A stretch of DNA of 59,117 bases, filler included, from 6 parts of 6 records of this genome joined end to end with filler, not necessarily neighbours in it, one strand, 5' to 3'. Counted from the whole stretch's first letter, positions 46,195 through 58,664 are shown. The notes: generated by a model from the sequence alone, not told the origin. Translations and numbers: made by a program.

Positions 46195-47859
46195 TCAATT
46201 GGACAGGCGGGAGATCACGATTTGGACCTCCGGCTTTTTGCCAGTCTCTTCATGCGTCGATTTACGGATGATGCGGCGCATCTCTTCTTCGAGTTTGCCG
46301 TCGTCCGAAAGGGTCTTGGGCTTGGCGCGCATCAGGAATTGGTTCACATCCTCTTCCAACACATCCACCAACGGCGCGCGTGACAGGCCGACTTCAGGCA
46401 GGCCACGCACTTCGCACCAGCAATCGCCCAAAGGCTCGTTGTCCTCAATGATCACCGTGGCAACAATCAACCCGTTCATCGCCATGCGAATCCGGTCGCG
46501 CACAATGCCATCCATCGCGCCGATTTGGATCGACCCATCGAGATACGTCCGCCCGGTTTCAACATATTCAACCACGCGTGGGGCATTGCCCGCCAGATCA
46601 AGACACACACCATTCGGCGCAACCACAGCCTGAAACCCGTTGGATTCCGCAAGTTTCGCATGTTCGCGCAGGTGACGGTGTTCGCCGTGCATCGGGATGA
46701 CGACCTGCGGTTTAACGACCTCATGCAGCGTCGCAAGATCGGGACGGTTGGCGTGACCTGAGACGTGGAACAAGCCGTCCTGGTCGGAAATCACGTTCAC
46801 ATCCATTTCGGAAAACGCGTTGACGATCCGACCGACAGAAACCTCGTTGCCGGGGATGGTTTTCGAGGAGAAAATCATCGTGTCCCCGGCTGCGAATTTC
46901 AGGCCAAGGTATTTGCCACGCGACAATTGTGCGGTGGCCGCACGATGTTCGCCCTGCGACCCTGTGGTCAGCAACATCAGGTTTTCACGCGGAATATCGG
47001 TGGCGTTCTCGGGTGATACCGTGGCGGGGAAATCGGAAATGATCCCGGTTTCAATCGCGGCGGTGATCATCCGGCGCATCGCGCGGCCCAAAAGCACCAC
47101 GGATCGTCCCGCCTGTGCCCCGGCCACGGCCAAGGTTTTGACCCGGGCAATGTTGGAGGCAAATGTGGTGGCGGCAACCATGCCGTCAAGTCCGGCGATC
47201 AGCTCGGTGAGCGGGCCGATGACTTCGGATTCGGAGCGCCCCGGATTGGGCGAAAACACATTGGTGGAATCGCACACCATGGCTTTGACGCCGTCTTTGG
47301 ACACCTCTTCCCACAGCGCGCGATCAAAGGCCTCGCCCACCACCGGGGTCTCGTCGAGTTTGAAATCGCCAGTGTGGATGACCCGTCCGGCAGGCGTGTC
47401 GATGACCAAGGCCGAGCTTTCAGGGATCGAATGCGAGATCGGCAGGAAGCCGACGGTAAAGGCCCCAACGGTCGTCGTGTCCGGCCATTTCGAAACCGTT
47501 TTGATTTGCAGCTCATCATGACCGTGCTCTTCGAATTTCAACCGCGCGAGGTGGGCGGTGAAGGCGCGGGCATAGATCGGCGCGCCGAGACGGGGCCAAA
47601 GATGGCCGACCGCGCCAACGTGGTCTTCATGCGCATGGGTGATGAAAATCGCGTCGATCCGGTCCTTGCGCTCCACCAGCCAAGCGATGTCGGCAAAGAT
47701 GAGATCAACACCGGGGGTGCCATCCATCGAGGGGAACGTCACGCCGAGATCGACGACGATATAGCGTTCGCTGCCCGCCGGGCCATAGCCGTACACATAA
47801 CAGTTCATGCCGATTTCGCCGGCGCCGCCTAACGGGAGGTAAAGAAGTCTATCGCTCAT
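46195..47859 (-). CDS. rnj: Ribonuclease J
   Basis: PLGGAGEIGMN, THAHEDHVG, HSIPE, TGDFK, DSTN, FASN, GSQGE, HVSGHA, PMHGE. Confidence 0.95.
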   Translation of the reverse strand: MSDRLLYLPLGGAGEIGMNCYVYGYGPAGSERYIVVDLGVTFPSMDGTPGVDLIFADIAWLVERKDRIDAIFITHAHEDHVGAVGHLWPRLGAPIYARAFTAHLARLKFEEHGHDELQIKTVSKWPDTTTVGAFTVGFLPISHSIPESSALVIDTPAGRVIHTGDFKLDETPVVGEAFDRALWEEVSKDGVKAMVCDSTNVFSPNPGRSESEVIGPLTELIAGLDGMVAATTFASNIARVKTLAVAGAQAGRSVVLLGRAMRRMITAAIETGIISDFPATVSPENATDIPRENLMLLTTGSQGEHRAATAQLSRGKYLGLKFAAGDTMIFSSKTIPGNEVSVGRIVNAFSEMDVNVISDQDGLFHVSGHANRPDLATLHEVVKPQVVIPMHGEHRHLREHAKLAESNGFQAVVAPNGVCLDLAGNAPRVVEYVETGRTYLDGSIQIGAMDGIVRDRIRMAMNGLIVATVIIEDNEPLGDCWCEVRGLPEVGLSRAPLVDVLEEDVNQFLMRAKPKTLSDDGKLEEEMRRIIRKSTHEETGKKPEVQIVISRLSN

Positions 47860-48635
47860 ATGTTGCCCTGATCCTTATTATATTGGTGAATGACCACGAG
47901 GCCGCGAATGGTCAGGAATTCGTCAAATGCGTCAAAGAGTTTGTGGCCCTGATTGAACAAAGGCGCAAGGCCTCCGGTGGCGATGACTTGCATCGGGCGG
48001 TCATATTCGACCTTAATCCGGTTGCAGGTTTCGCGCACGAGGCCGACGTAGCCCCAGAACACCCCCGATTGCATACAGGCGACGGTGTTGGTGCCGATCA
48101 CCTTTTCCGGCATGGTCACGTCCACATGCGGGAGAGCTGCGGCTTTGAGGTGCAGAGATTCAAGCGAGGTGTTGACCCCGGGAGAGATCACGCCGCCAAC
48201 ATAAGCGCCATCTTCGGCCACGACATCGAATGTGGTGGCCGTGCCGAAATCAACCACGATCAGATCGCCGCCAAAGCGGTCAAACGCGGCGGCGGAATTG
48301 ACCAGACGGTCGGGGCCGACCGTTGTGCCCTCGTCCACACGCGGCGCATGGGGCAAAAGACATTCGGGTTTGCCGACCACAAGGGGACGACAATCGAAGT
48401 AACGATTGGCCAGAACCCGCAGGTTAAACACCACCCGCGGTACGGTGGAGGATATGATCACCTCGGTGATGTCGGCCTCGATTTTTTGAAAATTCATCAA
48501 AGTCGCAAGCCAGACATAATATTGATCCGCCGTGCGTTGATGTTCGGTCGAGGTGCGCCATGTGGCGATGAAATCGGTCCCGTCCCAGATGGAAAAGACG
48601 GTGTTGGTGTTGCCGGTGTCGATACAGAGAAGCAT
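47856..48635 (-). CDS. coaX: Type III pantothenate kinase
   Basis: IDTGNTNT, GPDR, VDFGTATTFD, GGVISPG, ATGGLA. Confidence 0.95.
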   Translation of the reverse strand: MLLCIDTGNTNTVFSIWDGTDFIATWRTSTEHQRTADQYYVWLATLMNFQKIEADITEVIISSTVPRVVFNLRVLANRYFDCRPLVVGKPECLLPHAPRVDEGTTVGPDRLVNSAAAFDRFGGDLIVVDFGTATTFDVVAEDGAYVGGVISPGVNTSLESLHLKAAALPHVDVTMPEKVIGTNTVACMQSGVFWGYVGLVRETCNRIKVEYDRPMQVIATGGLAPLFNQGHKLFDAFDEFLTIRGLVVIHQYNKDQGNI

Positions 48636-49382
48636 TTAAAAATAAACCTCAGCGGCGGGGATGGTGAGTTTGCCATTGGATGTGGCGAGCACAAGATTGC
48701 CAAAGGCATCGACGGTTTCAAACGTGCCATGGTGCTCTTCGCGCATGGTACGCGCCCGGATCGGTTGGCCCAAACGCGCGGCCCGCGCGAGCCAGGCGGT
48801 GCGGATCGGCGCGAAGCCATAGGTGACAAATTGCGCCTCCCAATGGGCGTAAGCCGGGGCAAGCAGGTCCAGGAAGTCTTCGGGCACAACCAGCGCCCCG
48901 GTTTCATCGGCCAAGGAGACCGGGGCCACCGCGCCCTCCTCAAGCTGCGCCGGAACGGGGGCTGCGACAAGATTGACGCCAATGCCAATGGCCAAATGCG
49001 CAGGCCCACGTTCCAAAAGGATGCCCGCGACCTTGCCGCCATTGAGCAAAACATCATTGGGCCATTTCAGTGAAAACGGATCGGTGCGCCCGGTGGCGGC
49101 GACGAAAGCGTCATAAAGCGCCAGCGAGGCCACGAAGGAGCGCAAAGCCACCAGTTCCGGCCGCTCTGTAGGGAACATCAACAAGGTGGCGGCAAAATTG
49201 CCCTCGGGCATGGCCCAGGCCCGACCGCGCCGACCGTGGGCGGCGGTTTGCGACAGGGCCAAAATCCATTGCGAAAATGTGGAAGAGGCCGCGACACGCG
49301 CGGCCTCCGACATGGTGCTGTCCACGGAGGGCAGGACGGTGCGCCCTACCCCTTCGGGCCATCTGTACAGATTATTTGACAA
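48636..49382 (-). CDS. birA: Biotin-[acetyl-CoA carboxylase] ligase (no HTH)
   Basis: [41 protein letters not shown] start overlapping nuoN end. Confidence 0.92.
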
Positions 49383-49824
49383 GGGCTTCGGCCGCGAGCG
49401 CAGCCATGCCATCGACGCCAAACATATTGACGATCCCGACCAACATGATCAGCGCAGAGAGGGTCAACAACGCAAAGGTCACCGGCGAAGACACTTTGTC
49501 CAAAGGATCGGTCTCAACGCCAAAGTACATGTAATAGACGATGCGCAGGTAGTAGAAGGCACCGATCACCGACGCGATCACACCGAAGATGGCAAGGTAG
49601 ATGAGACCCGCCCCCCAAGCGGCCTGAAGCACGGCCAGTTTGCCGAAGAACCCGAGCATCGGCGGCACACCGGCGAGCGAGAACATCAGGACCAGCAAGG
49701 CCAGAGCCTTGGCCGGAGAATTGCGCCAATACAAGTTCAGCGAGGCGATGTCTGTGACCGGCTGGCCATCGCGTTCCATGGTCATGATAAAGGCGAAGGT
49801 GCCGATGTTCATGGTGACATAGAT
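49372..49824 (-). CDS. nuoN: NADH-quinone oxidoreductase subunit N, 5' truncated
   Basis: [28 protein letters not shown]; canonical nuoN-birA-coaX-rnj order. Confidence 0.93.
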
Positions 49825-49926: not shown

Positions 49927-50640
49927 CAAAGCCTGCATGCCGAACAGGCCAAAACGCCGACCAATGGCGATGGTTTTGGTATCGGCTGGTATGACGAGCG
50001 CAAGACGCCCGGTCTTTATCGTGAAATCCTTCCGGCTTGGAATGATCCAAACCTGCGGTCGCTTGCCCATCATATCCGATCAGGCATGTTTTTCGCCCAT
50101 GTCCGGGCATCGACGGGGACCGAAACCAGCCGCACCAACTGCCATCCGTTTGCGCATGACAATTACCTGTTCATGCATAACGGCCAGATCGGGGATTATC
50201 CGTTGGTGCGGCGCGTGCTGGAAGCGATGATCGATGATGAATTTTACGCCACCCGCCATGGCACGACCGATAGCGAGCTTATTTTCTGTCTGATGCTGAC
50301 ATTTGGTTTGCGCACCGATCCGCATCGCGCGATCCGCAAAACCATCGAAGTTGTCGAACGTGAAATGAACGAAAGAGGCGCAACTGCGCCCTTCCGTTTC
50401 ACCGCCTGTCTGTCAAATGGCGAAAGCGTTTGTGCCATCCGCCATGCCAGCGATGACAAGCCGCCATCGCTTTACTGGCGCAAGCGTGGGGATCATGTGA
50501 TTGTCGTGTCCGAACCGCTGGATGCCGAAAGCGATAGCTGGATCGCGGTGGCACCCAACCATACCCTGCATGTTTGCCGTGATTTGAATATCTGCGAAGA
50601 ACCGACACTGTCGGCGACCGGGTGCAAGGGCGCAGCGTAA
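49927..50640 (+). CDS. Class II glutamine amidotransferase (EgtC/Dug3-like), 5' truncated
   Basis: Frame open from the contig edge: NGDGFGIGWY, FFAHVRAST, NCHPF, FMHNG, GTTDSE, VSEPL. Confidence 0.85.
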   Translation, partial: QSLHAEQAKTPTNGDGFGIGWYDERKTPGLYREILPAWNDPNLRSLAHHIRSGMFFAHVRASTGTETSRTNCHPFAHDNYLFMHNGQIGDYPLVRRVLEAMIDDEFYATRHGTTDSELIFCLMLTFGLRTDPHRAIRKTIEVVEREMNERGATAPFRFTACLSNGESVCAIRHASDDKPPSLYWRKRGDHVIVVSEPLDAESDSWIAVAPNHTLHVCRDLNICEEPTLSATGCKGAA

Positions 50641-50642
50641 TC

Positions 50643-51416
50643 CTAGTTCGCGACGATCACCTGTGATCGGCCCCGAACCAGTTGCTGTTGCAAAATATCG
50701 CCCGGTGCGGTGTTAAGCATTACGGTTTTGAAATCCGATGCATGACCATCGCGGCACAGGGCCTTTCTGCCGACCTTTTTTTCATCGACCAATAGGATCG
50801 CGTGATCGCAGCAGGCGACAAGGGCGCGACGTGCGCGGACTTCGTCCATGTTGAAATCCATCAGGTCCCCGGTTTCCGACATCCCCCCGACACTGACAAT
50901 CCCGAAATCGGCGCGGTAGGTGCCAAAGAATTCCGCACTGTCAGCCCCGATGATATCAAGATCGCGGGTGCGGATGGTCCCGCCCGCAAGGCGTAACGTG
51001 ACACTGGGCGCGTTCTGTAATGTCAGTACCACATGGATATTGTTGGTCAGCACCGTCAGATTGCGGTGCGAGGCCAGGCTTTGAGCAGCGAGTTCGGCGG
51101 TGGTGCCGGTGCCAATCGCGATGGTGCAGCCTTCGGGGATGATATCGGCGAGTTTGGCGGCAAGGGCGCGTTTGCCACTGCGATTCCAGACTTCGCGTTT
51201 TTCATAGGCCGAGTTATCCGGATCGGGTGCCGGACCGGCAAGGCCATGACGGCGGAAGATGCGCCCCTGTTCCTGTAAATCGCGCAGATCGGTCCGGATT
51301 GTCTGGACCGAGACGTTAAAGCGGCGTGCCAGTTCTTCGACTGCCATGAAGCCGCAGGATTTGACAAGGGCGACAATCCGGTCGCGGCGGCGGTCAAGTG
51401 GCACGGGATCGGACAT
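50643..51416 (-). CDS. DeoR/GlpR family transcriptional regulator
   Basis: VEELARRFNVSVQTIRTDL HTH, IGTGTT, LTNN, DFNMDE; true start 51416 with AAAGGA RBS (ORF-track start is overextended). Confidence 0.92.
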   Translation of the reverse strand: MSDPVPLDRRRDRIVALVKSCGFMAVEELARRFNVSVQTIRTDLRDLQEQGRIFRRHGLAGPAPDPDNSAYEKREVWNRSGKRALAAKLADIIPEGCTIAIGTGTTAELAAQSLASHRNLTVLTNNIHVVLTLQNAPSVTLRLAGGTIRTRDLDIIGADSAEFFGTYRADFGIVSVGGMSETGDLMDFNMDEVRARRALVACCDHAILLVDEKKVGRKALCRDGHASDFKTVMLNTAPGDILQQQLVRGRSQVIVAN

Positions 51417-51433
51417 TGGTTTCCTTTGATATT

Positions 51434-51447
51434 CTTTCGTTCGAAAG
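51434..51447. promoter_or_regulatory. Putative DeoR/GlpR operator 1
   Basis: CTTTCG-TT-CGAAAG palindrome. Confidence 0.55.
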
Positions 51448-51584
51448 TATGTGTTTCGCGATGTCACGGAGTATAGACAGGCTTGGTTGTGTCTGAAAAG
51501 CCCGGTACGCTTGTTGAAACATTTAATTCTTTGCTTTGTCACACAACTGAAATCGAAATCCATATAGCGTCCCCGTCGGATTGT

Positions 51585-51596
51585 TTTCGAACGAAA
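51585..51596. promoter_or_regulatory. Putative DeoR/GlpR operator 2
   Basis: TTTCG-AA-CGAAA, exact reverse complement of the 12-bp core of operator 1. Confidence 0.55.
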
Positions 51597-51644
51597 CCTT
51601 CGGGGTGGCCGCAAAGGTACGCCCCACGCAATCAAGGGATGTGG

Positions 51645-52628
51645 ATGATGCGTAACGTTCTTCTTGCTGCCGTGGCTTCGGCTGCGATGATGCTGCCAGT
51701 TGTTGGTCAGGCCGCCGAGAAACTGGTTCTTTATACCAGCCAGCCAAATCAGGATGCCCAGACCACCGTCGATGCCTTCAAGGCTGCCTATCCGGATGTT
51801 GAAGTCGAATGGGTGCGTGATGGCACCACCAAGCTGATGGCAAAGCTGCGTGCCGAGATTGCAGCAGGTGATCCGCGCCCGGATGTTTTGCTGATTGCGG
51901 ATACCGTGACACTGGAAGGCATGAAGGGCGAAGGCCTGTTGCAGGCGTATAAATCGCCCGAAGCATCGGCCTATGAAGCCGCCCTTTATGATGCGGATGG
52001 TTATTACTATTCGACCAAGCTGATTACGACCGGAATTGTTTATAATACTGGTGTCGAGAAAGCCCCGAAAAGCTGGGCCGATCTTGCCGATCCGGCGATG
52101 AAAAATCAGGTCGTGATGCCAAGCCCGCTTTATTCCGGTGCGGCCCTTATTCATCTGTCGACCCTGACGGAAAACAAGGAACTGGGTTGGGACTATTATC
52201 AGGCACTGGCTGCGAACGAAGCGCGCGCACAGGGTGGTAATGGCGGCGTGTTCAAGGCCGTTGCATCGGGCGAAAAGCCGTATGGTGTGGTTGTCGATTT
52301 CCTTGCGATCCGTGGCAAGGCCGAAGGTTCGCCCGTTGATTTCGTCTTCCCGACCGAGGGTGTCACTTATGTGACCGAGCCGGTTGCGATCATGAAAGAC
52401 GCCAAAAACGTCGATGCGGCGCACAAGTTTGTTGATTTCGTTCTGTCGAGCAAAGGCCAGGAACTGGTTCTGGACATGGGTTATGTCCCGGCGCGCGGCG
52501 ACATGGCATTGCCGGAAGGTTTCCCGGCACGCAGCGACATCAAGCTGATGGATTTCAATCCGGCAGTGGCGCTGGAGCAGGCAGAAGCGAACAAGAAAAA
52601 GTTCGCGGACATTTTCGGGGCTGAATAA
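51645..52628 (+). CDS. ABC substrate-binding protein (AfuA/FbpA-like family)
   Basis: Signal peptide, LVLYTSQ, DGTTKL..KL.AE, PKSWADL, PSPLYSG, FPTEG. Confidence 0.88.
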   Translation: MMRNVLLAAVASAAMMLPVVGQAAEKLVLYTSQPNQDAQTTVDAFKAAYPDVEVEWVRDGTTKLMAKLRAEIAAGDPRPDVLLIADTVTLEGMKGEGLLQAYKSPEASAYEAALYDADGYYYSTKLITTGIVYNTGVEKAPKSWADLADPAMKNQVVMPSPLYSGAALIHLSTLTENKELGWDYYQALAANEARAQGGNGGVFKAVASGEKPYGVVVDFLAIRGKAEGSPVDFVFPTEGVTYVTEPVAIMKDAKNVDAAHKFVDFVLSSKGQELVLDMGYVPARGDMALPEGFPARSDIKLMDFNPAVALEQAEANKKKFADIFGAE

Positions 52629-54364
52629 TGCAGGCTGCAAGTCGCCTTCGCGGCTTCATGCCCGGCTTTGCAAGCCCAACGGTTGGCAACCGGTCTTCGG
52701 ACCGGTTGTTACCGTGGCTTTTATTGCCGGTGTTCGTGATTTCGATTTTACCGATTGCGCGCCTTGCGATTGAAGGCGTGTTTGTCGGTGGTGTGCCCAG
52801 TGCGGATTACATCCGCGATGTTCTGGGTAGTTCGACGACATGGCGGGCAACTGCCAACAGTCTTTATACCGCAGGGCTTGGAACGATCATTTCGCTTTTG
52901 ATTGGGGGCGCATTTGCCTTTCTGGTCGCGCTGACCGATATCCGCGCCAAGGCGGTACTGGTTTTCTGTTTCATGATCCCGATGATGATCCCGCCGCAGA
53001 TCACGGCGTTGGCGTGGGTGCAACTGACCGGGCCGAGCAGTGCACTTTTGAATGCGCTTGGCATGGCACCCCCGATGGGATCGCCCCAGCCGTTTTATTC
53101 GGCCGAGGGGATTGCGCTTTTGCTGGGGATTCAGCATGCATCAATCGTGTTTTTGACCCTTCGGGCCAATTTGCGCATGCTGCCGCGCGAACAGATCGAA
53201 GCAGCCCGTTTGGCGGGTGCGCGTGGCGGTCGTTTGTGGTGGCAGATCATTTTGCCACTGACCAGTCCCGGTCTGATCGCCGGAACCGCGATGGCGTTTG
53301 TCACGGCCCTTGGCAATTTCGGGATACCGGCGATGCTGGGGATACCCGCCAATTATTCGACATTACCGACCCTGATTTATCAGAAGCTGGCCGGATTTGG
53401 CCCGTCGGTTCTGGGCGAGGTATCGGTGCTGGCGATGCTGATCGGGATGATTGCGATTTTGGGTGTGGCGGTGCATCACCGGTTACTAGGCAAGCGTGAC
53501 TATCGTCTGATGGGGATGGTGGGGCGGCCACTTGATATCCGGTTGGGCGCACGCAGGACATTGGTTGAAGCGGTGCTTTGGGCGGTTTTGATGGCCATTC
53601 TGGTGATCCCGTTGATGGCGTTGGTTGCGACCGCACTGGTCCCGGCATTTGGTGTTAAGCTGAGCCTTGCCAATTACAGTTTTGATGCGTTTTACGAAGT
53701 CCTGTTTGTTCAGCCATCGACCATCCGGGCGTTCCATAACAGTTTCATGTTGTCGGTCGGGGCGGCGGTGACGCTGGTCGCGATCTGTTTGCCGCTGGCC
53801 TATGTGATTGTAAGGCGGCCGACCCGGTTGACCCATATGGTCAATCTTCTGGTCGAGGTGCCCTATGCCTTGCCCGGTGTGGTTCTGGCGATTGCCTGCA
53901 TTCTTCTGTTCATCCGCATTCCGGTAATCGATGTCAGTTTGTATGGCACGCTTGCGATCATTTTTGTTGCCTATCTGGCGCGGTTTCTGGTGATTGCGCT
54001 GCGCCCGGTGATGAACAGTTTTTCCCAGCTTGATCCGGCATTGGAAGAGGCGGCACAGGCGTGCGGTGCAGGACTTGGTCGCCGGTTGCGCGATATTCTG
54101 CTGCCATTGGCGGCACCGTCGGCAGCGGCTGGGGCGTTGCTGGTGTTTTTGACGGCGTTTAACGAATTGACGGTTTCGGCCCTTCTGTGGTCGGCCGGAA
54201 ACGAGACGCTGGGCGTTTTGATTTTCAATCTGGATGACAGTGGCGATACCGTTCTGGCCTCGGCCGTGGCGGTATTGGTCGTGCTGGTTGTTATTGCGTT
54301 GATGACCGGTTTCCAACTGGCATCACGTCGTTTGCCCAAGGGAGTTGTACCATGGCAGACATAA
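52628..54364 (+). CDS. ABC permease, two-module AfuB/FbpB type
   Basis: Two EAA loops (EAARLAGA, EEAAQACGA), NFGIPAMLG, PYALPG. Confidence 0.9.
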   Translation: MQAASRLRGFMPGFASPTVGNRSSDRLLPWLLLPVFVISILPIARLAIEGVFVGGVPSADYIRDVLGSSTTWRATANSLYTAGLGTIISLLIGGAFAFLVALTDIRAKAVLVFCFMIPMMIPPQITALAWVQLTGPSSALLNALGMAPPMGSPQPFYSAEGIALLLGIQHASIVFLTLRANLRMLPREQIEAARLAGARGGRLWWQIILPLTSPGLIAGTAMAFVTALGNFGIPAMLGIPANYSTLPTLIYQKLAGFGPSVLGEVSVLAMLIGMIAILGVAVHHRLLGKRDYRLMGMVGRPLDIRLGARRTLVEAVLWAVLMAILVIPLMALVATALVPAFGVKLSLANYSFDAFYEVLFVQPSTIRAFHNSFMLSVGAAVTLVAICLPLAYVIVRRPTRLTHMVNLLVEVPYALPGVVLAIACILLFIRIPVIDVSLYGTLAIIFVAYLARFLVIALRPVMNSFSQLDPALEEAAQACGAGLGRRLRDILLPLAAPSAAAGALLVFLTAFNELTVSALLWSAGNETLGVLIFNLDDSGDTVLASAVAVLVVLVVIALMTGFQLASRRLPKGVVPWQT

Positions 54365-55428
54365 ATCTTTCGCGGATTACCAAATCTTTTGGCGATTACC
54401 GCGCGGTCAATCAGGTATCGCTTGATATCCATGATGGCGAATTTGTTGCCCTTTTGGGGCCGTCGGGTTGTGGCAAGACGACGTTGCTGCGTCTTCTGGC
54501 CGGTTTCGAAGAACCCGATCAGGGCGTCATAGCCTTGGGCGGGCAGGCAGTTGCCGATCCGGTCAACGGGGTGATGATCAATCCAGAGGCACGCAATCTT
54601 GGCATCGTGTTTCAGTCCTATGCGCTTTGGCCGCATATGTCGGTGGCGCGCAATGTCGGTTATCCGTTGGAGGTGCGCGGGCTTGGCCGGGCGGAACGTG
54701 AGGCGAAAATTGCCGAGGCATTGTCGATTGTCGCCCTTGAACCTTATGCCGACCGCAGCCCGACGGAACTTTCGGGTGGGCAGCGCCAGCGGGTTGCATT
54801 GGCGCGATGTCTGGTGATGGAGCCGCGCGCGGTGTTGCTGGATGAACCGCTTGCAAACCTTGATGTGCATCTGCGCGAAACCATGCAGCAGGCATTTCTG
54901 GATTTCCATCGCCGGACCGGGGCGACGATGATTTACGTCACCCACGATCAGGCCGAAGCCATGGCCATGGCCGACCGGATTGCGGTGATGGACAAGGGCT
55001 GCATTCGTCAGATGGCGGCCCCGGAAACCCTTTACCGTGAACCGGCGGATCATATGGTCGCGGGCTTTGTCGGGGCCGGGGCGGTGTTGCCGATTGGTGA
55101 CGTATCCATGCGGGGTGCCGGACGGTGTTCGGTGCGATTGGGCGATGCGGCGATCCATGCGCGGATTTGCCAGAAGGCGGCCAGCAATATGAACGAACTT
55201 GGTTTGTGTTTGCGGCCAGAGGATGTCTGGGTCGACGAGGCCGGGACATTGCGCGGTTCGGTTGAGGATTGCGTTTATCTGGGCGGTCGGTTCCGTCTTC
55301 AGGTGCGGGTCGGTGCCGACCAGGTTTTACCGGTTTATGCGACGAAACGCGCACGGATCGGCGAAGCCGTCGGATTGGTGATTTCCGATGGCTGGGTGTT
55401 TAACCGATCAGAAGGTGAGGCCGCCTGA
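54352..55428 (+). CDS. ABC ATP-binding subunit (AfuC/PotA-like, TOBE tail)
   Basis: GPSGCGKT, FQSYALWPHM, LSGGQRQR, LLDEP, VTHDQ. Confidence 0.92.
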   Translation: MADINLSRITKSFGDYRAVNQVSLDIHDGEFVALLGPSGCGKTTLLRLLAGFEEPDQGVIALGGQAVADPVNGVMINPEARNLGIVFQSYALWPHMSVARNVGYPLEVRGLGRAEREAKIAEALSIVALEPYADRSPTELSGGQRQRVALARCLVMEPRAVLLDEPLANLDVHLRETMQQAFLDFHRRTGATMIYVTHDQAEAMAMADRIAVMDKGCIRQMAAPETLYREPADHMVAGFVGAGAVLPIGDVSMRGAGRCSVRLGDAAIHARICQKAASNMNELGLCLRPEDVWVDEAGTLRGSVEDCVYLGGRFRLQVRVGADQVLPVYATKRARIGEAVGLVISDGWVFNRSEGEAA

Positions 55429-56516
55429 TGTCTGCCCGGATGCGTGTTTTATCGGGCCTTGGTGAAAAAGGCCCGGCCTGTTTGCGGTTGGAATTTTTCA
55501 ATCGGCGATGGTTGCTGGATTGCGGGGTCGGCCCGGAAAATGACAGCGGTTTTGATCCGGCATGGTTGAACAAGGTTAACGCCGTTTTCATTACACACGA
55601 CCATGTCGATCATATCGGTGCCGCGGCGGAGGTGATAGCAGCCGGTTTACCGATTTACTGTACCGAGGTCACGGCGCGATCCCTGCCTGCAGGGGCGAAT
55701 GTGATCATTCTGCCGCCCTATGGGGAAATCCAGGTTGACGGTGTGACCGTCACCACCGGGCGGACCGGGCATGCCTTTGGCGGGGTGTGGCTGCATTTCG
55801 AACTGGGCGGCGGGGTTCTTTACACCGGTGATTTCTGCAAGGAGTCTGATTACTTCCTTTATGATATACCACCGGATGCTGCGACGGTTTTGATGGATGC
55901 GTCCTATGGTATGGAGCGCCTGACACAACAGGTGCGGATCGACGGGCTTTTGACCAAGATGTCCAAACTTGACGGCCAAATCCTGTTTCCCGTACCGCCG
56001 AGCGGACGGGCAGCTGAAATGGCATTGCTGTTTGAAAAGCACGGCATGACCGATTGGTCGATGGATGCGCGGTGCTATGGCCGGGTCAAACAGGTTCTGG
56101 GGGATGGCGGATCGGATTATGTATCGTTTGATGCGATCAAAAAGCTGCGAGGGCTTAAGGACAAGGCGCGTGATTTCAATCCGGATGCCAGATTGCTTTT
56201 GTGTCACGCGCCGTGCGGAACATATGGCATGGCGGGCGAACTGATTGAAAAATGGGGGCAGGACGGACGGCTGGGCCGCGATGCGCATGTAATCTTTACC
56301 GGTTTCATGCCAGCCGAGGCGCGCCGCATGGTCGAAAAGGGGCATGCGCATTTCCGGCGCTGGAACGTGCATCCGTTGTTTGATGATGTGGTCGCGATGG
56401 CCAATGATTGCCACGCGATGCAGATCGTGCCGCTGTTTAATGGCCGTCCCGAGGACTTTAGCCTTGTCGATGGCTTTGACGGGCGGTTACAGCTTTCGGA
56501 TCGGTTTTATCTGTAA
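55428..56516 (+). CDS. MBL-fold metallo-hydrolase, compact beta-CASP type
   Basis: LLDCG, THDHVDHIG, GHAFGG, YTGDF, MDASYG, FPVPPSGR, NVHP; TGATG coupling. Confidence 0.85.
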   Translation: MSARMRVLSGLGEKGPACLRLEFFNRRWLLDCGVGPENDSGFDPAWLNKVNAVFITHDHVDHIGAAAEVIAAGLPIYCTEVTARSLPAGANVIILPPYGEIQVDGVTVTTGRTGHAFGGVWLHFELGGGVLYTGDFCKESDYFLYDIPPDAATVLMDASYGMERLTQQVRIDGLLTKMSKLDGQILFPVPPSGRAAEMALLFEKHGMTDWSMDARCYGRVKQVLGDGGSDYVSFDAIKKLRGLKDKARDFNPDARLLLCHAPCGTYGMAGELIEKWGQDGRLGRDAHVIFTGFMPAEARRMVEKGHAHFRRWNVHPLFDDVVAMANDCHAMQIVPLFNGRPEDFSLVDGFDGRLQLSDRFYL

Positions 56517-56533
56517 ATGGGCAATGACCAGAC

Positions 56534-57124
56534 ATGATTTATCCTGCAAAGACGTTCGATTTTCCGAAAGTGCCGTTTGTGTTTATTCGGCACGGGGAAA
56601 CCGATGCCAACAAGGCCGAAATCATCGCCGGGTCAAGCGAGCCGCCATTGAACAATGCCGGTCGCGAACAGGCGCGTGCGATTGCGCCATTGATGGCGAT
56701 GGCAAAATGGCAGGCGGTTTATGTCAGCCCGCAGGACAGGGCGCGCAAAACAGCCGAACTGGTTTTGCCCGATTATGATTTGCATATTCTTGACGGGTTG
56801 CGCGAACGCCATTGGGGTGACCTTGAAGGCCGCCCGATTGCCGAGGCTGGATCACGGTTCGATACCCCGCCCAATGGCGAAGGGTTCGATGCGATGTGTC
56901 AGCGGGTATCGTTTGCCATGCAAACAGCTCTGGCCGAGGTAAGCGACCGTTTGACCGTGGTGGTTGCCCATTCCGGTGTCGGGCGTTGCATTCTTTATAT
57001 GACCGGTTTTGATGCCGAAGGTCCGCGTATTGCAAATGCAACGCCGATTCTGTTCCGCCCGGTCGGAACGGGATGGGAATATGAAAATTTGACCGAAGAT
57101 CTGATCAGGGAGATTTCCGCGTGA
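56534..57124 (+). CDS. Histidine phosphatase (phosphoglycerate mutase superfamily)
   Basis: IRHGET..N, SP..RA..TA, LRERHWGDLEG, VAHSG. Confidence 0.9.
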   Translation: MIYPAKTFDFPKVPFVFIRHGETDANKAEIIAGSSEPPLNNAGREQARAIAPLMAMAKWQAVYVSPQDRARKTAELVLPDYDLHILDGLRERHWGDLEGRPIAEAGSRFDTPPNGEGFDAMCQRVSFAMQTALAEVSDRLTVVVAHSGVGRCILYMTGFDAEGPRIANATPILFRPVGTGWEYENLTEDLIREISA

Positions 57125-57612
57125 CCCAGCCAGAAACCATAATATCCGGTTCGATCAGTAACCCGCGTGATGCGGTGGTGTTCGATATGGATGGCACGCT
57201 GGCCTATTTCGATGCCGATGAATTGGGGCATCTGGTGCATGGGGTGGAAAAGCATTGGGATGCGTTTTTCGATGCAATGGATAAAGCCGCCCCGATTGCC
57301 GATATCGAACGGCTTTTGCGCGTTTTGCACCAATCCGGGCAGGCGATTGTGATTTGTTCGGGCCGCCCGGCCGGGTGGCAGCACCGGTCCGAAGCATGGC
57401 TTCGGGCACATGGCATTCCGTTTGATGGCATGTATCTGCGCCCGGAAGATGCCGATCACCGCACGGACGAGGAAGTCAAAGAAGACCTTCTGGCACAAAT
57501 CCGTGCCGACGGCTTCAACCCGTGGCTGGTAGTCGATGACCGCAAGCGCGTGGTGGACAAATGGCGCGATATGGGGTTGACCTGCCTGCAATGTGCGCCG
57601 GGGGATTTTTAA
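57121..57612 (+). CDS. HAD phosphatase, T4 polynucleotide kinase/phosphatase C-terminal type
   Basis: FDMDGTLA, SGRP, R...D.R.DEEVKE, DDRKRVVDKWR.MG..C.Q.APGDF; GTGA coupling. Confidence 0.85.
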   Translation: MTQPETIISGSISNPRDAVVFDMDGTLAYFDADELGHLVHGVEKHWDAFFDAMDKAAPIADIERLLRVLHQSGQAIVICSGRPAGWQHRSEAWLRAHGIPFDGMYLRPEDADHRTDEEVKEDLLAQIRADGFNPWLVVDDRKRVVDKWRDMGLTCLQCAPGDF

Positions 57613-57625
57613 GGCCTTGATAGAG

Positions 57626-57651
57626 AAAGACCGGCGCGTGTGCCGGTCTTT
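57626..57651. terminator. Bidirectional terminator
   Basis: AAAGACCGGC-6nt-GCCGGTCTTT between the operon end and msrB. Confidence 0.8.
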
Positions 57652-58199: not shown

Positions 58200-58664
58200 T
58201 CACCCTTGGCACCAGGGTTGGCGTTTTGTTTTGCCGTCATAGGGGCGGGCGAGACCCTGATTGATCAGTTCCTGATCGAGTGCCCTGCCGTCAATGCGCA
58301 CCGATGCGACGACGCGTCCGCCATAACGGCCCCATTCCGGTTCGCAGAATTCAACGCGTTTGGCCGATTTCAGGCTTTGACGGGCGAAATCGCGGGCTTT
58401 GCCCGCAAGGGACTTTTCGCTTTCGCATTTGCCGCGTATTTCGGGGGTGTCCACGCCGCGCACACGTACCGACATTTCGGCAATTTCGCCGGGAAGGCCG
58501 GGGATATTCACATAGATGGTATCGCCATCATAAGCGTATTCACCGTGCCGTTCGCGCAGCGGCCAGTCATAGCAGGCAGCGATAGCCGAGATGGAGGCCG
58601 CGGGCAGAAACATGCTGCAAAGTGTTAGAGGTGCGATGGTGAGTCGGATTGAGGTGCGGGGCAT
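58200..58664 (-). CDS. Secreted thermonuclease (SNase) family protein
   Basis: Signal peptide, YDGDT, VRVRGVDTPE, RYGGR, LI..GLARPYDG. Confidence 0.85.
   Translation of the reverse strand: MPRTSIRLTIAPLTLCSMFLPAASISAIAACYDWPLRERHGEYAYDGDTIYVNIPGLPGEIAEMSVRVRGVDTPEIRGKCESEKSLAGKARDFARQSLKSAKRVEFCEPEWGRYGGRVVASVRIDGRALDQELINQGLARPYDGKTKRQPWCQG

Follow-up and report, generated by a model that had tools for sequence, protein, structure and literature searches.

A candidate Pho-regulon module for small organophosphates in Thalassospira, with a predicted miniature beta-CASP protein behind an AfuA-like importer

This paper deals with positions 50643 to 57651 of a stretch of 59,117 nt of DNA (the window; six parts of six records of one genome, joined end to end with filler). 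The region holds a divergently oriented deoR gene and a run of six genes for a periplasmic binding protein, a fused permease, an ATP-binding cassette (ABC) ATPase, a hydrolase of the metallo-beta-lactamase (MBL) fold, a histidine phosphatase and a Pnkp-type HAD phosphatase. The source of the window is Thalassospira (Rhodospirillales), the MBL protein being 98-99% identical to its counterparts in T. australica, T. xianhensis and Thalassospira sp. The cassette is a self-contained seven-gene unit common to marine and enteric bacteria. We consider it probable that it forms a substrate-gated module of the Pho regulon which imports a small organophosphate, cleaves a phosphodiester bond and then dephosphorylates the product. 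An earlier reading of the window, made from the sequence alone, had proposed an uncharacterised organophosphate scavenging pathway serving release of phosphate rather than carbon catabolism. Both proposals are supported by the gene neighbourhoods, the Pho-box-like repeat, the PhoB-dependent induction of an orthologue, the likeness of the binding protein to AfuA and P5PA and not to ferric-binding proteins, and a literature search reported below; what the sequence-only reading had missed is the probable dual control, by PhoB and by a DeoR-family repressor.

According to the mechanism that we propose, scarcity of phosphate would lead PhoB to activate the promoter through a Pho box in place of the -35 element, and a DeoR-family repressor on a palindrome just downstream would keep the promoter shut unless substrate is being processed. 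The repressor would be released by an effector of the sugar-phosphate type, for which the first enzyme's product is the most plausible candidate, by analogy with the acc (agrocinopine catabolism) operon of Agrobacterium. In the periplasm a small organophosphate would be bound by the AfuA-like protein, to be carried into the cell by the ABC transporter. In the cytoplasm the beta-CASP enzyme would cleave a phosphodiester or cyclic phosphodiester bond, after which the Pnkp-type HAD phosphatase and/or the histidine phosphatase would remove the exposed monoester phosphate. Because the products would be inorganic phosphate (Pi) and a common metabolite, no further dedicated catabolic genes would be needed.

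A conserved seven-gene unit

Studying 50 alphaproteobacterial loci from outside Thalassospira (set A: Roseobacteraceae, Maritalea, Cohaesibacter, Devosiaceae, Rhodovibrionaceae and others) reveals the genes for binding protein, permease, ATPase, MBL protein and histidine phosphatase in this order in every one of them. The deoR gene is present in 47 and the HAD gene in 42, and all seven genes are found together in 42; five loci lack only the HAD gene and three lack both deoR and HAD, one of the latter lying at a contig end. The full set also occurs in ten out of eleven loci from Enterobacteriaceae (Raoultella, Siccibacter, Pseudescherichia), which were reached via the HAD search, and at the threshold used only the histidine phosphatase is missing from the eleventh. 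None of the set-A loci has the genes that flank the cassette in the window (amidotransferase, msrB, nuclease). Chance falls far short of explaining the arrangement, since bacteria of other orders and classes show the same gene order amid different flanks. Within Thalassospira the whole region including the flanks is syntenic, which is uninformative on function. The co-occurrence of phosphoesterase genes with the transporter, for which the sequence-only reading had called for a neighbourhood search, thus extends well outside this genus. When all open reading frames (ORFs) of 67 loci were clustered, no further gene appeared in more than ten loci and no kinase, dehydrogenase, aldolase or phosphonate-catabolic gene was a recurrent neighbour; ten further variant loci had no extra gene in common.

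A second set comprised 40 loci around more distant MBL proteins. It includes Halomonadaceae in which the transporter and the MBL gene are accompanied by either the HAD or the histidine phosphatase gene, and three loci that carry neither. Other members of this set are stand-alone MBL homologues, and the neighbourhoods of eight of these contain unrelated genes (pyruvate kinase, homoserine succinyltransferase and others). In Alcaligenes pakistanensis (L112, 7520-11024) a stand-alone homologue lies between a gene for a membrane protein, with a weak match to the "nucleoside recognition" (Gate) profile of 27.2 bits, below the cut-off of 29.6, and one for a phosphatase of the Y_phosphatase3 family; this group may be another small phosphoester module.

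In two genera from one family of large-genome Alphaproteobacteria, a gene of the endonuclease/exonuclease/phosphatase (EEP) family takes the place of the MBL gene. The transporter is homologous, with a binding protein 62-63% identical, and a Pho box matching at 12 of 14 positions lies upstream. That unrelated nuclease/phosphodiesterase folds, beta-CASP and EEP, stand behind the same importer supports a phosphodiester as substrate.

As for the organisation of these EEP variants (L200, 14410-16971; L201, 11760-14595), the transporter is followed by the EEP gene, a 250-aa ORF and a PhzF-like gene, and in L200 the ATPase and EEP genes are set apart by an insertion of about 2.7 kb, which includes an Imm11-like ORF. 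The 250-aa ORF had been taken by eye as Nudix-like, an assignment we rejected as it has no Pfam match at E 0.01.

The cassette is found on chromosomes and large plasmids, in Thalassospira, many Roseobacteraceae, Halomonadaceae and some Enterobacteriaceae. The MBL gene is present on 45 plasmid records, among them 27 from Phaeobacter, eight from Azospirillum, four from Enterobacter and three from Paracoccus. Evenly drawn samples show how rare it is, with hits at E 1e-40 in 4 of 401 alphaproteobacterial genomes, and a search of 5,426 complete E. coli genomes with the cassette DNA of "Escherichia sp. ESNIH1" gave no match. The binding protein is the best conserved component, with a median identity to the window of 76% among non-Thalassospira orthologues versus 43-46% for the DeoR protein, the histidine phosphatase and the MBL protein. 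One 242-kb plasmid of Arenibacterium sp. carries two full copies of the cassette (L086 and L090). Pacificibacter marinus F2R14 (L062, 257-4358) has a second, distant set of binding protein, permease and ATPase genes (26-34% identity), located after deoR and on the same strand as deoR.

The MBL protein and its fold

According to its predicted structure the MBL protein is a miniature beta-CASP protein. A profile search with the family gave aCPSF1 as the best match (3.4e-21), followed by CPSF73 and TTHA0252. The AlphaFold model, built from 50 sequences, has a pLDDT of 95.5, and its top Foldseek matches are all beta-CASP nucleases, with TM scores of 0.76-0.82 normalised to the query. Structural alignment gives IntS11, aCPSF1, CPSF73 and TTHA0252 as best matches, with Z scores of 36-37 and root mean square deviations of 2.7-3.0 Å over 350-355 of the 362 residues, bearing out the beta-CASP-type label that had been given to this protein from the sequence. 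All 50 matches listed in this alignment are RNA-acting members.

Several conserved residues are invariant in the 50 MBL sequences, namely H57-x-H59-x-D61-H62, H115, D135, E197 and H315, and D31 is nearly invariant. D31, H57-H62, H115 and D135 make up the MBL motifs (Asp, HxHxDH, His and Asp). The beta-CASP motifs consist of an acidic residue (A), a histidine (B) and a histidine or valine (C). Candidates for motif A are E197 or D157 and for motif B H315, all of them invariant. Like the beta-CASP ribonucleases (CPSF73/Ysh1, IntS11, aCPSF1, TTHA0252, RNase J), the protein has the fold over its whole length together with the metal-binding motifs, but it is about 70-100 residues shorter and is encoded in a nutrient-uptake operon. 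The family consists of 219 clusters at E <1e-30 among 1.84 billion representatives, nearly all of 340-390 aa. A Pfam scan of the protein gave no Beta-Casp or RMMBL match, and the clusters of the family in the protein atlas have generic "MBL fold" names only.

The window also encodes an RNase J (46195-47859, minus strand) with beta-CASP, RMMBL and RNase_J_C domains; the genome hence has an ordinary beta-CASP RNase besides the miniature one.

The two phosphatases

The HAD protein aligns with the phosphatase domain of T4 polynucleotide kinase from the DxDGT motif to the C-terminal GDF (5uj0, 1ltq), with about 30% identity by eye, but it has no kinase domain and is a stand-alone protein of 163 aa. 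Its HAD_PNKP score lies well above the cut-off (Table 1), in agreement with the PNKP-type label of the sequence-only reading. The phosphatase of T4 Pnkp acts on 3'-phosphate ends and 3'-nucleotides. The nearest solved relatives of the histidine phosphatase are CobC/alpha-ribazole phosphatases, a family acting on a ribotide; the protein matches His_Phos_1 and stays below the CobC equivalog cut-off (90 bits vs 162.9).

Catalytic motifs are kept in all three hydrolases, in the MBL protein at least those for metal binding. As read from the translations, a signal-like hydrophobic N-terminus is present only in the binding protein, and because the hydrolases have no signal sequence they are expected to act in the cytoplasm. 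Variants of the cassette with only one of the two phosphatases exist, which fits a pathway in which a diesterase acts first and partly redundant monoesterases act second.

The importer

By sequence comparison the nearest relatives of the binding protein among solved structures are AfuA (4r72; phmmer 2.3e-26, residues 29-284) and P5PA (6wce; 5.1e-22), both organophosphate binders, whereas the E-values of ferric-binding proteins are poorer than that of AfuA by about 20 orders of magnitude; the likeness to the AfuA family had been suspected before. The sugar-coordinating residues His205, Asp206 and Glu229 of AfuA were used to define its family (PMC4546632). In the HMMER alignment F222, L223 and V246 stand at these positions, and the family-defining residues are not found there. 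The nearly invariant D221 and E248 are one and two residues away, and a local shift of register is possible. The sugar-type pocket therefore seems to differ from that of AfuA, but we do not claim its loss. Among the phosphate loops, T64 aligns with Ser37 of AfuA, the second loop keeps S-G with Thr150 changed to Ala, and the third loop is glycine-rich.

The best NCBIfam models for the importer are PhnS2/PhnU2/PhnT2, PhnU2 being the best one for the permease. The PhnS2T2U2 equivalog scores are far below the cut-offs (159.9 vs 392.75, 154.3 vs 593.25 and 317.1 vs 457.7), and in the NCBIfam equivalog scan none of the cassette proteins reached a curated cut-off.

The control region

Upstream of the binding-protein gene, two elements, a palindrome and a Pho-box-like direct repeat, stand out as conserved when 11 intergenic regions are aligned. 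The palindrome has the invariant core TTTCGNNCGAAA and is located about 15-20 nt before the ribosome-binding site. In the window it is present at 51585 (main copy) and, next to deoR, at 51435. An exact second copy is also found in the Maritalea, Roseibium and Phaeovulum loci, and a degenerate one in most roseobacters. In set A the palindrome and the deoR gene co-occur perfectly (47 loci with both, three with neither), and the palindrome has no more than five matches elsewhere in about 1.1 Mb. In Halomonadaceae loci with deoR three direct half-site repeats replace the palindrome, and loci without deoR carry none. The distribution indicates that the palindrome is likely the operator of the DeoR protein. 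This protein matches both HTH_DeoR and the sensor domain DeoRC in Pfam. Its best NCBIfam model is the E. coli-type GlpR, at 186.7 bits and below the cut-off of 331, so that it does not count as a GlpR orthologue.

In the gammaproteobacterial loci with deoR (L105, L107, L109-L111, L114, L208, L209) the three direct repeats AACGAAAG(C) are about 20 nt apart and lie just upstream of the Pho-box-like repeat, whereas the palindrome of the window type lies downstream of it. Between the classes, the repressor may have shifted its place with respect to PhoB.

A Pho box consists of two 7-nt units four bases apart, CTGTCAT being the most conserved unit in E. coli (PMC4415409). With an E. coli-derived consensus of 14 positions we scored the 110 nt upstream of the palindrome in 57 loci against 2280 random windows of the same loci. 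A match of at least 10/14 was found in 23 of the 57 loci and in 85 background windows, and one of at least 11/14 in 10 loci and 16 background windows, where the counts keep two loci (L048 and L052) that are mis-scored because an off-site palindrome was taken. The distance from the repeat to the palindrome is fixed at 31-48 nt. Better matches than that of the window occur at the same position in Maritalea (14/14, L059) and in L121, L200 and L201 (12/14 each). The repeats of Halomonadaceae and Enterobacteriaceae match at 9-11 of 14 positions and lie either 46 nt from the start codon, a constant distance, or beside the half-sites. No Pho box is found close to the stand-alone MBL genes (scores of 7-10; one 12/14 match lies 221 nt upstream).

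The proteome of Phaeobacter sp. MED193 independently confirms the inference from the Pho box for an orthologue of the cassette. In the supplement of Westermann et al. 2023 (PMC10132767) the fold changes without phosphate are 3.09 for the "metal dependent RNase" MED193_03492, 5.15 for the "iron transporter, ATP-binding" MED193_03497, 4.47 for the binding protein MED193_03507, which makes up 0.79% of the proteome, and 2.51 for the "GlpR" MED193_03512; all four are listed as N/D in the phoB mutant. The label "iron transporter" of the MED193 binding protein is wrong. In a term search of the main text of the same paper the cassette proteins were not mentioned. The strain corresponds to our locus L060 and the orthologue to MED193_03487-03512, mapped by gene order and consecutive accessions: in L060 the histidine phosphatase gene is followed by the acyl-CoA dehydrogenase gene MED193_03482, and dehydrogenase, histidine phosphatase, ATPase and binding protein have the accessions EAQ44648, 44649, 44651 and 44653. 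We had also considered MED193_11409-11424 ("PotABCD") with MED193_11439 ("GlpR") as the orthologue and rejected them, since the tags fit a Pot layout with separate permeases (PotC 11409, PotA 11419, PotD 11424).

A second "Fe3+" ABC system of MED193 comprises the binding protein MED193_01855 (fold change 4.58, 0.80% of the proteome) and the ATPase MED193_01870, and is adjoined by the CpdA-type phosphodiesterase MED193_01875 (3.67), likewise induced when phosphate is lacking and listed as N/D in the phoB mutant (PMC10132767). An iron-type importer combined with a cytoplasmic diesterase may be a recurring design of the Pho regulon.

Candidate substrates and alternative functions

If the general model holds, it is quite possible, if short of likely, that the substrates are breakdown products of RNA or DNA, i.e. 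nucleoside 2',3'-cyclic or 3'-phosphates and di- or very short oligonucleotides. These are favoured by the lineages of the enzymes, an RNA-type beta-CASP protein, a Pnkp 3'-phosphatase and a CobC-like phosphatase, and the displacement of the MBL gene by an EEP gene agrees. A more specific version, which we regard as rather unlikely, is the dedicated uptake of short RNA or DNA fragments with 3'- or cyclic phosphate ends by an AfuA-like importer and their cytoplasmic digestion by a miniature CPSF73/RNase-J-type nuclease and a Pnkp-type phosphatase. If this is true, a beta-CASP enzyme would for the first time be seen to serve nutrition and not RNA processing, and bacteria of habitats as far apart as the open sea and the gut would have a previously unknown way of turning dissolved nucleic acids into cellular phosphorus.

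Several points weigh against the proposed function or against nucleic-acid products as substrate. To our knowledge all beta-CASP enzymes studied so far cut long nucleic acids, and we know of no ABC importer for oligonucleotides. In the 50 MBL sequences no invariant histidine or valine follows H315, and the usual histidine of motif C may be missing. The MBL family is not tied to import as such: 14 of the 40 distant homologues, mostly from metagenome-assembled genomes of soil Alphaproteobacteria, stand alone, without transporter or Pho box. A close relative (G001, 99% identical) has a near-full CpdB-like periplasmic 2',3'-cyclic-nucleotide diesterase (867.7 bits vs a cut-off of 883), and therefore import of cyclic nucleotides is not obviously needed. 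GlpR as best match of the regulator points to glycerol phosphate and not to nucleotides. The Pho-box match of the window itself is weak, a motif match of 10/14, the score that 3.7% of the background windows reach, and the data on PhoB-dependent induction come from Phaeobacter orthologues, not from Thalassospira. Moreover, the compared loci are related, and the counts given above are not counts of independent events. Finally, the ligands of AfuA and P5PA are the monoesters hexose-6-phosphate and pyridoxal phosphate, not diesters (PMC4546632, PMC8427247).

Among the alternatives, the substrate might be a glycerol or polyol phosphodiester or a glycerol cyclic phosphate, with teichoic-acid-like polymers or the head groups of lipids as its source. 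Glycerol-3-phosphate released by the MBL enzyme would then lift a GlpR-like repression, and the phosphatases would free Pi, in an overall logic like that of Ugp and UgpQ. It would suit this explanation that GlpR is the best family match of the regulator, that the MED193 orthologue is labelled GlpR and that the Pho regulon of MED193 is rich in glycerophosphodiester functions (PMC10132767, Table 1). We nevertheless consider it unlikely, as the GlpR score is far below its cut-off, Ugp and GlpQ, both Pho-induced, are already present in the same genomes (PMC10132767), and none of the three enzymes belongs to a known glycerophosphodiester family, their nearest relatives acting on RNA ends, 3'-phosphates and a ribotide.

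Quite improbable is a role of the hydrolases in recycling the RNA and nucleotides of the cell itself under phosphate starvation, merely co-regulated with an unrelated phosphate-ester importer. Such sparing of phosphorus would account for the RNA-type beta-CASP fold, the 3'-phosphatase of the RNA-repair type and the MBL homologues that stand alone without a transporter. But the latter have no Pho box, the enzymes of the cassette are translationally coupled to the transporter genes and kept together with them across classes, a local repressor that senses a substrate is ill-suited to internal recycling, and the replacement of MBL by EEP took place behind the same transporter.

We give very little credence to an AfuABC-like importer of sugar-phosphate monoesters that serves mainly as a carbon route, with the hydrolases as accessories. 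AfuA is indeed the nearest solved relative, DeoR-family regulators typically sense sugar phosphates and the phosphate-holding loops appear partly kept; however, phenylalanine, leucine and valine stand at the positions of H205, D206 and E229, with a shift to D221/E248 possible, and Pho control, three phosphoesterases and the lack of a catabolic enzyme argue for release of phosphorus. An importer for ferric iron, polyamines or 2-aminoethylphosphonate, as in older annotations (source labels "iron transporter" and "PotA"; best models PhnS2/PhnU2/PhnT2), is hardly conceivable in view of the low equivalog scores, the far poorer match of ferric-binding proteins, the lack of a recurrent phosphonate-catabolic neighbour and the induction by limitation of phosphate, not iron (PMC10132767).

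Comparison with known systems

Closest in logic to the proposed import, cleavage and dephosphorylation of an organophosphate is the acc operon on Ti plasmids of Agrobacterium, with the DeoR-family regulator AccR, an ABC importer, AccF as cytoplasmic phosphodiesterase and AccG as phosphatase (PMC4526662, PMC4086400). Expression of acc needs both substrate and phosphate limitation, and the phosphomonoester that the diesterase produces acts as effector (PMC4526662, PMC4086400). The substrate of acc is a sugar phosphodiester of plant tumours, whereas the hosts of the present cassette are marine and enteric bacteria. The working parts presumably share no homology; AccA is placed in a different class of binding proteins, AccF and AccG in other enzyme families.

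Import by Ugp of E. coli is followed by cleavage by the cytoplasmic diesterase UgpQ. The transporter and the diesterase of Ugp are presumably of other families, and its operon is not known to have phosphatases or a DeoR-type gate. Ugp is likewise a Pho-box-controlled ABC importer of phosphodiesters (ugp Pho boxes, PMC4415409). The importers AfuABC for hexose and heptose phosphates and P5PAB for pyridoxal phosphate, both from Actinobacillus, also have a fused permease and one ATPase and were once mislabelled as iron uptake systems. AfuA and P5PA hold the phosphate by the N-termini of helices, a feature that may be partly kept in the binding protein of the cassette, but the source passages describe neither hydrolase genes in their operons nor Pho regulation (PMC4546632, PMC8427247).

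A literature search including locus tags and UniProt ids, with most subscription journals and PDF supplements outside its scope, found no characterisation of the gene set, and the passages of the R. pomeroyi transporter screen that were consulted (PMC10130141) contained nothing relevant. The kind of system, a Pho-controlled importer with cytoplasmic cleavage, is known from Ugp/UgpQ and acc, whereas we have not found this composition, or a beta-CASP protein in such a role, described. Organic phosphorus, much of it as diester, feeds microbes in phosphate-poor seas, and the known import routes are few (Ugp, Phn, Aep). The ligand of a binding protein that alone reaches such a share of the phosphate-starved roseobacter proteome (PMC10132767) would name a compound important in the phosphorus cycle. 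Its identity would also give a metabolic role to the beta-CASP enzymes, so far known only as nucleases for the processing of nucleic acids. In addition, the cassette would be a clean example of control by two keys, where the need is signalled by PhoB and the substrate by the DeoR repressor.

Layout of the locus and neighbouring genes

Genes were called from the ORF list and the translations, and families were assigned by Pfam and NCBIfam scans (Table 1).

Table 1. Features of the cassette region, in coordinates of the window
Feature	Position	Strand	Evidence and remarks
DeoR/GlpR-family repressor gene, divergent from the operon	50643-51410	-	Pfam HTH_DeoR 4.4e-14, DeoRC 2.5e-37
Operator-like palindrome TTTCGTTCGAAA, candidate autoregulation site	51435-51446	strandless	adjoins deoR start
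Pho-box-like direct repeat TTGTCACACAACTGAAAT	51536-51553	+	10/14 consensus positions; main palindrome 31 nt downstream
Main operator-like palindrome TTTCGAACGAAA	51585-51596	strandless	~50 nt upstream of binding-protein start
Periplasmic substrate-binding protein, AfuA/P5PA-like	~51645-52628	+	SBP_bac_6 2.9e-25; also SBP_bac_8/1/11
Fused two-domain ABC permease, 578 aa	52628-54364	+	BPD_transp_1 in two stretches
ABC ATPase with TOBE domain	54352-55428	+	ABC_tran 2.6e-35, TOBE_2 5.5e-09
Compact beta-CASP MBL-fold hydrolase, 362 aa, predicted cytoplasmic phosphodiesterase	55428-56516	+	Lactamase_B_2 9.7e-10
Histidine phosphatase, branch 1, CobC-like	56534-57124	+	His_Phos_1 8.2e-34; RHGE motif
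Stand-alone T4-Pnkp-type HAD phosphatase, 163 aa	57121-57612	+	HAD_PNKP 1e-28, 100.7 bits vs cut-off 27.6; DMDGT motif
Terminator-like hairpin shared with convergent msrB	57626-57651	+	11-pair stem, 6 G-C pairs, T-rich tail

The ORFs, their coordinates, the family matches and the hairpin agree with the first description of the locus as a divergent deoR gene, a tightly coupled run and one terminator. The deoR and binding-protein genes are separated by an intergenic region of 226 nt, and the binding protein has start candidates at 51639, 51645 (most likely) and 51648. The coordinates show overlaps at four of the five plus-strand junctions: the permease gene starts within the stop of the binding-protein gene (52628) and the MBL gene within that of the ATPase gene (55428), ATPase and permease genes share 13 nt and HAD and histidine phosphatase genes 4 nt. 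The fifth junction, between MBL and histidine phosphatase genes, is 17 nt. The hairpin, a strong one, sits between the HAD stop and the convergent msrB. A long ORF on the minus strand (50643-52640) was rejected as an artefact of G+C content; the deoR gene ends at 51410.

Contigs from the RNA libraries of one marine study (X2-X5, from a relative 95-99% identical) cover most of the cassette and span the ATPase-MBL and the MBL-histidine phosphatase-HAD junctions, where such contigs prove neither transcription, nor its level, nor a single transcript, and gaps in the coverage carry no information.

Just past the cassette lies a staphylococcal-nuclease-like gene with a lipoprotein-type signal (58200-58664, minus strand; SNase 1.4e-08). 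Of the 28 Thalassospira loci long enough to include this place, 27 have the gene there, directly after the HAD gene where msrB is missing (L048-L050, L052), and it is absent around the cassette in other genera. Nucleases of the staphylococcal type leave 3'-phosphate ends, which are suited to a Pnkp-type phosphatase, but synteny at the level of a genus is no evidence.

On the other side, the ORF at 50086-50640 (plus strand) encodes a class-II glutamine amidotransferase (EgtC-like) that the profiles match only from about position 74-86 onward. Its N-terminal catalytic part seems to be missing, which could be due to a frameshift, a pseudogene or a sequencing error. The RNase J gene is followed by genes for a type III pantothenate kinase (47856-48635) and a protein like biotin-protein ligase (48636-49421).

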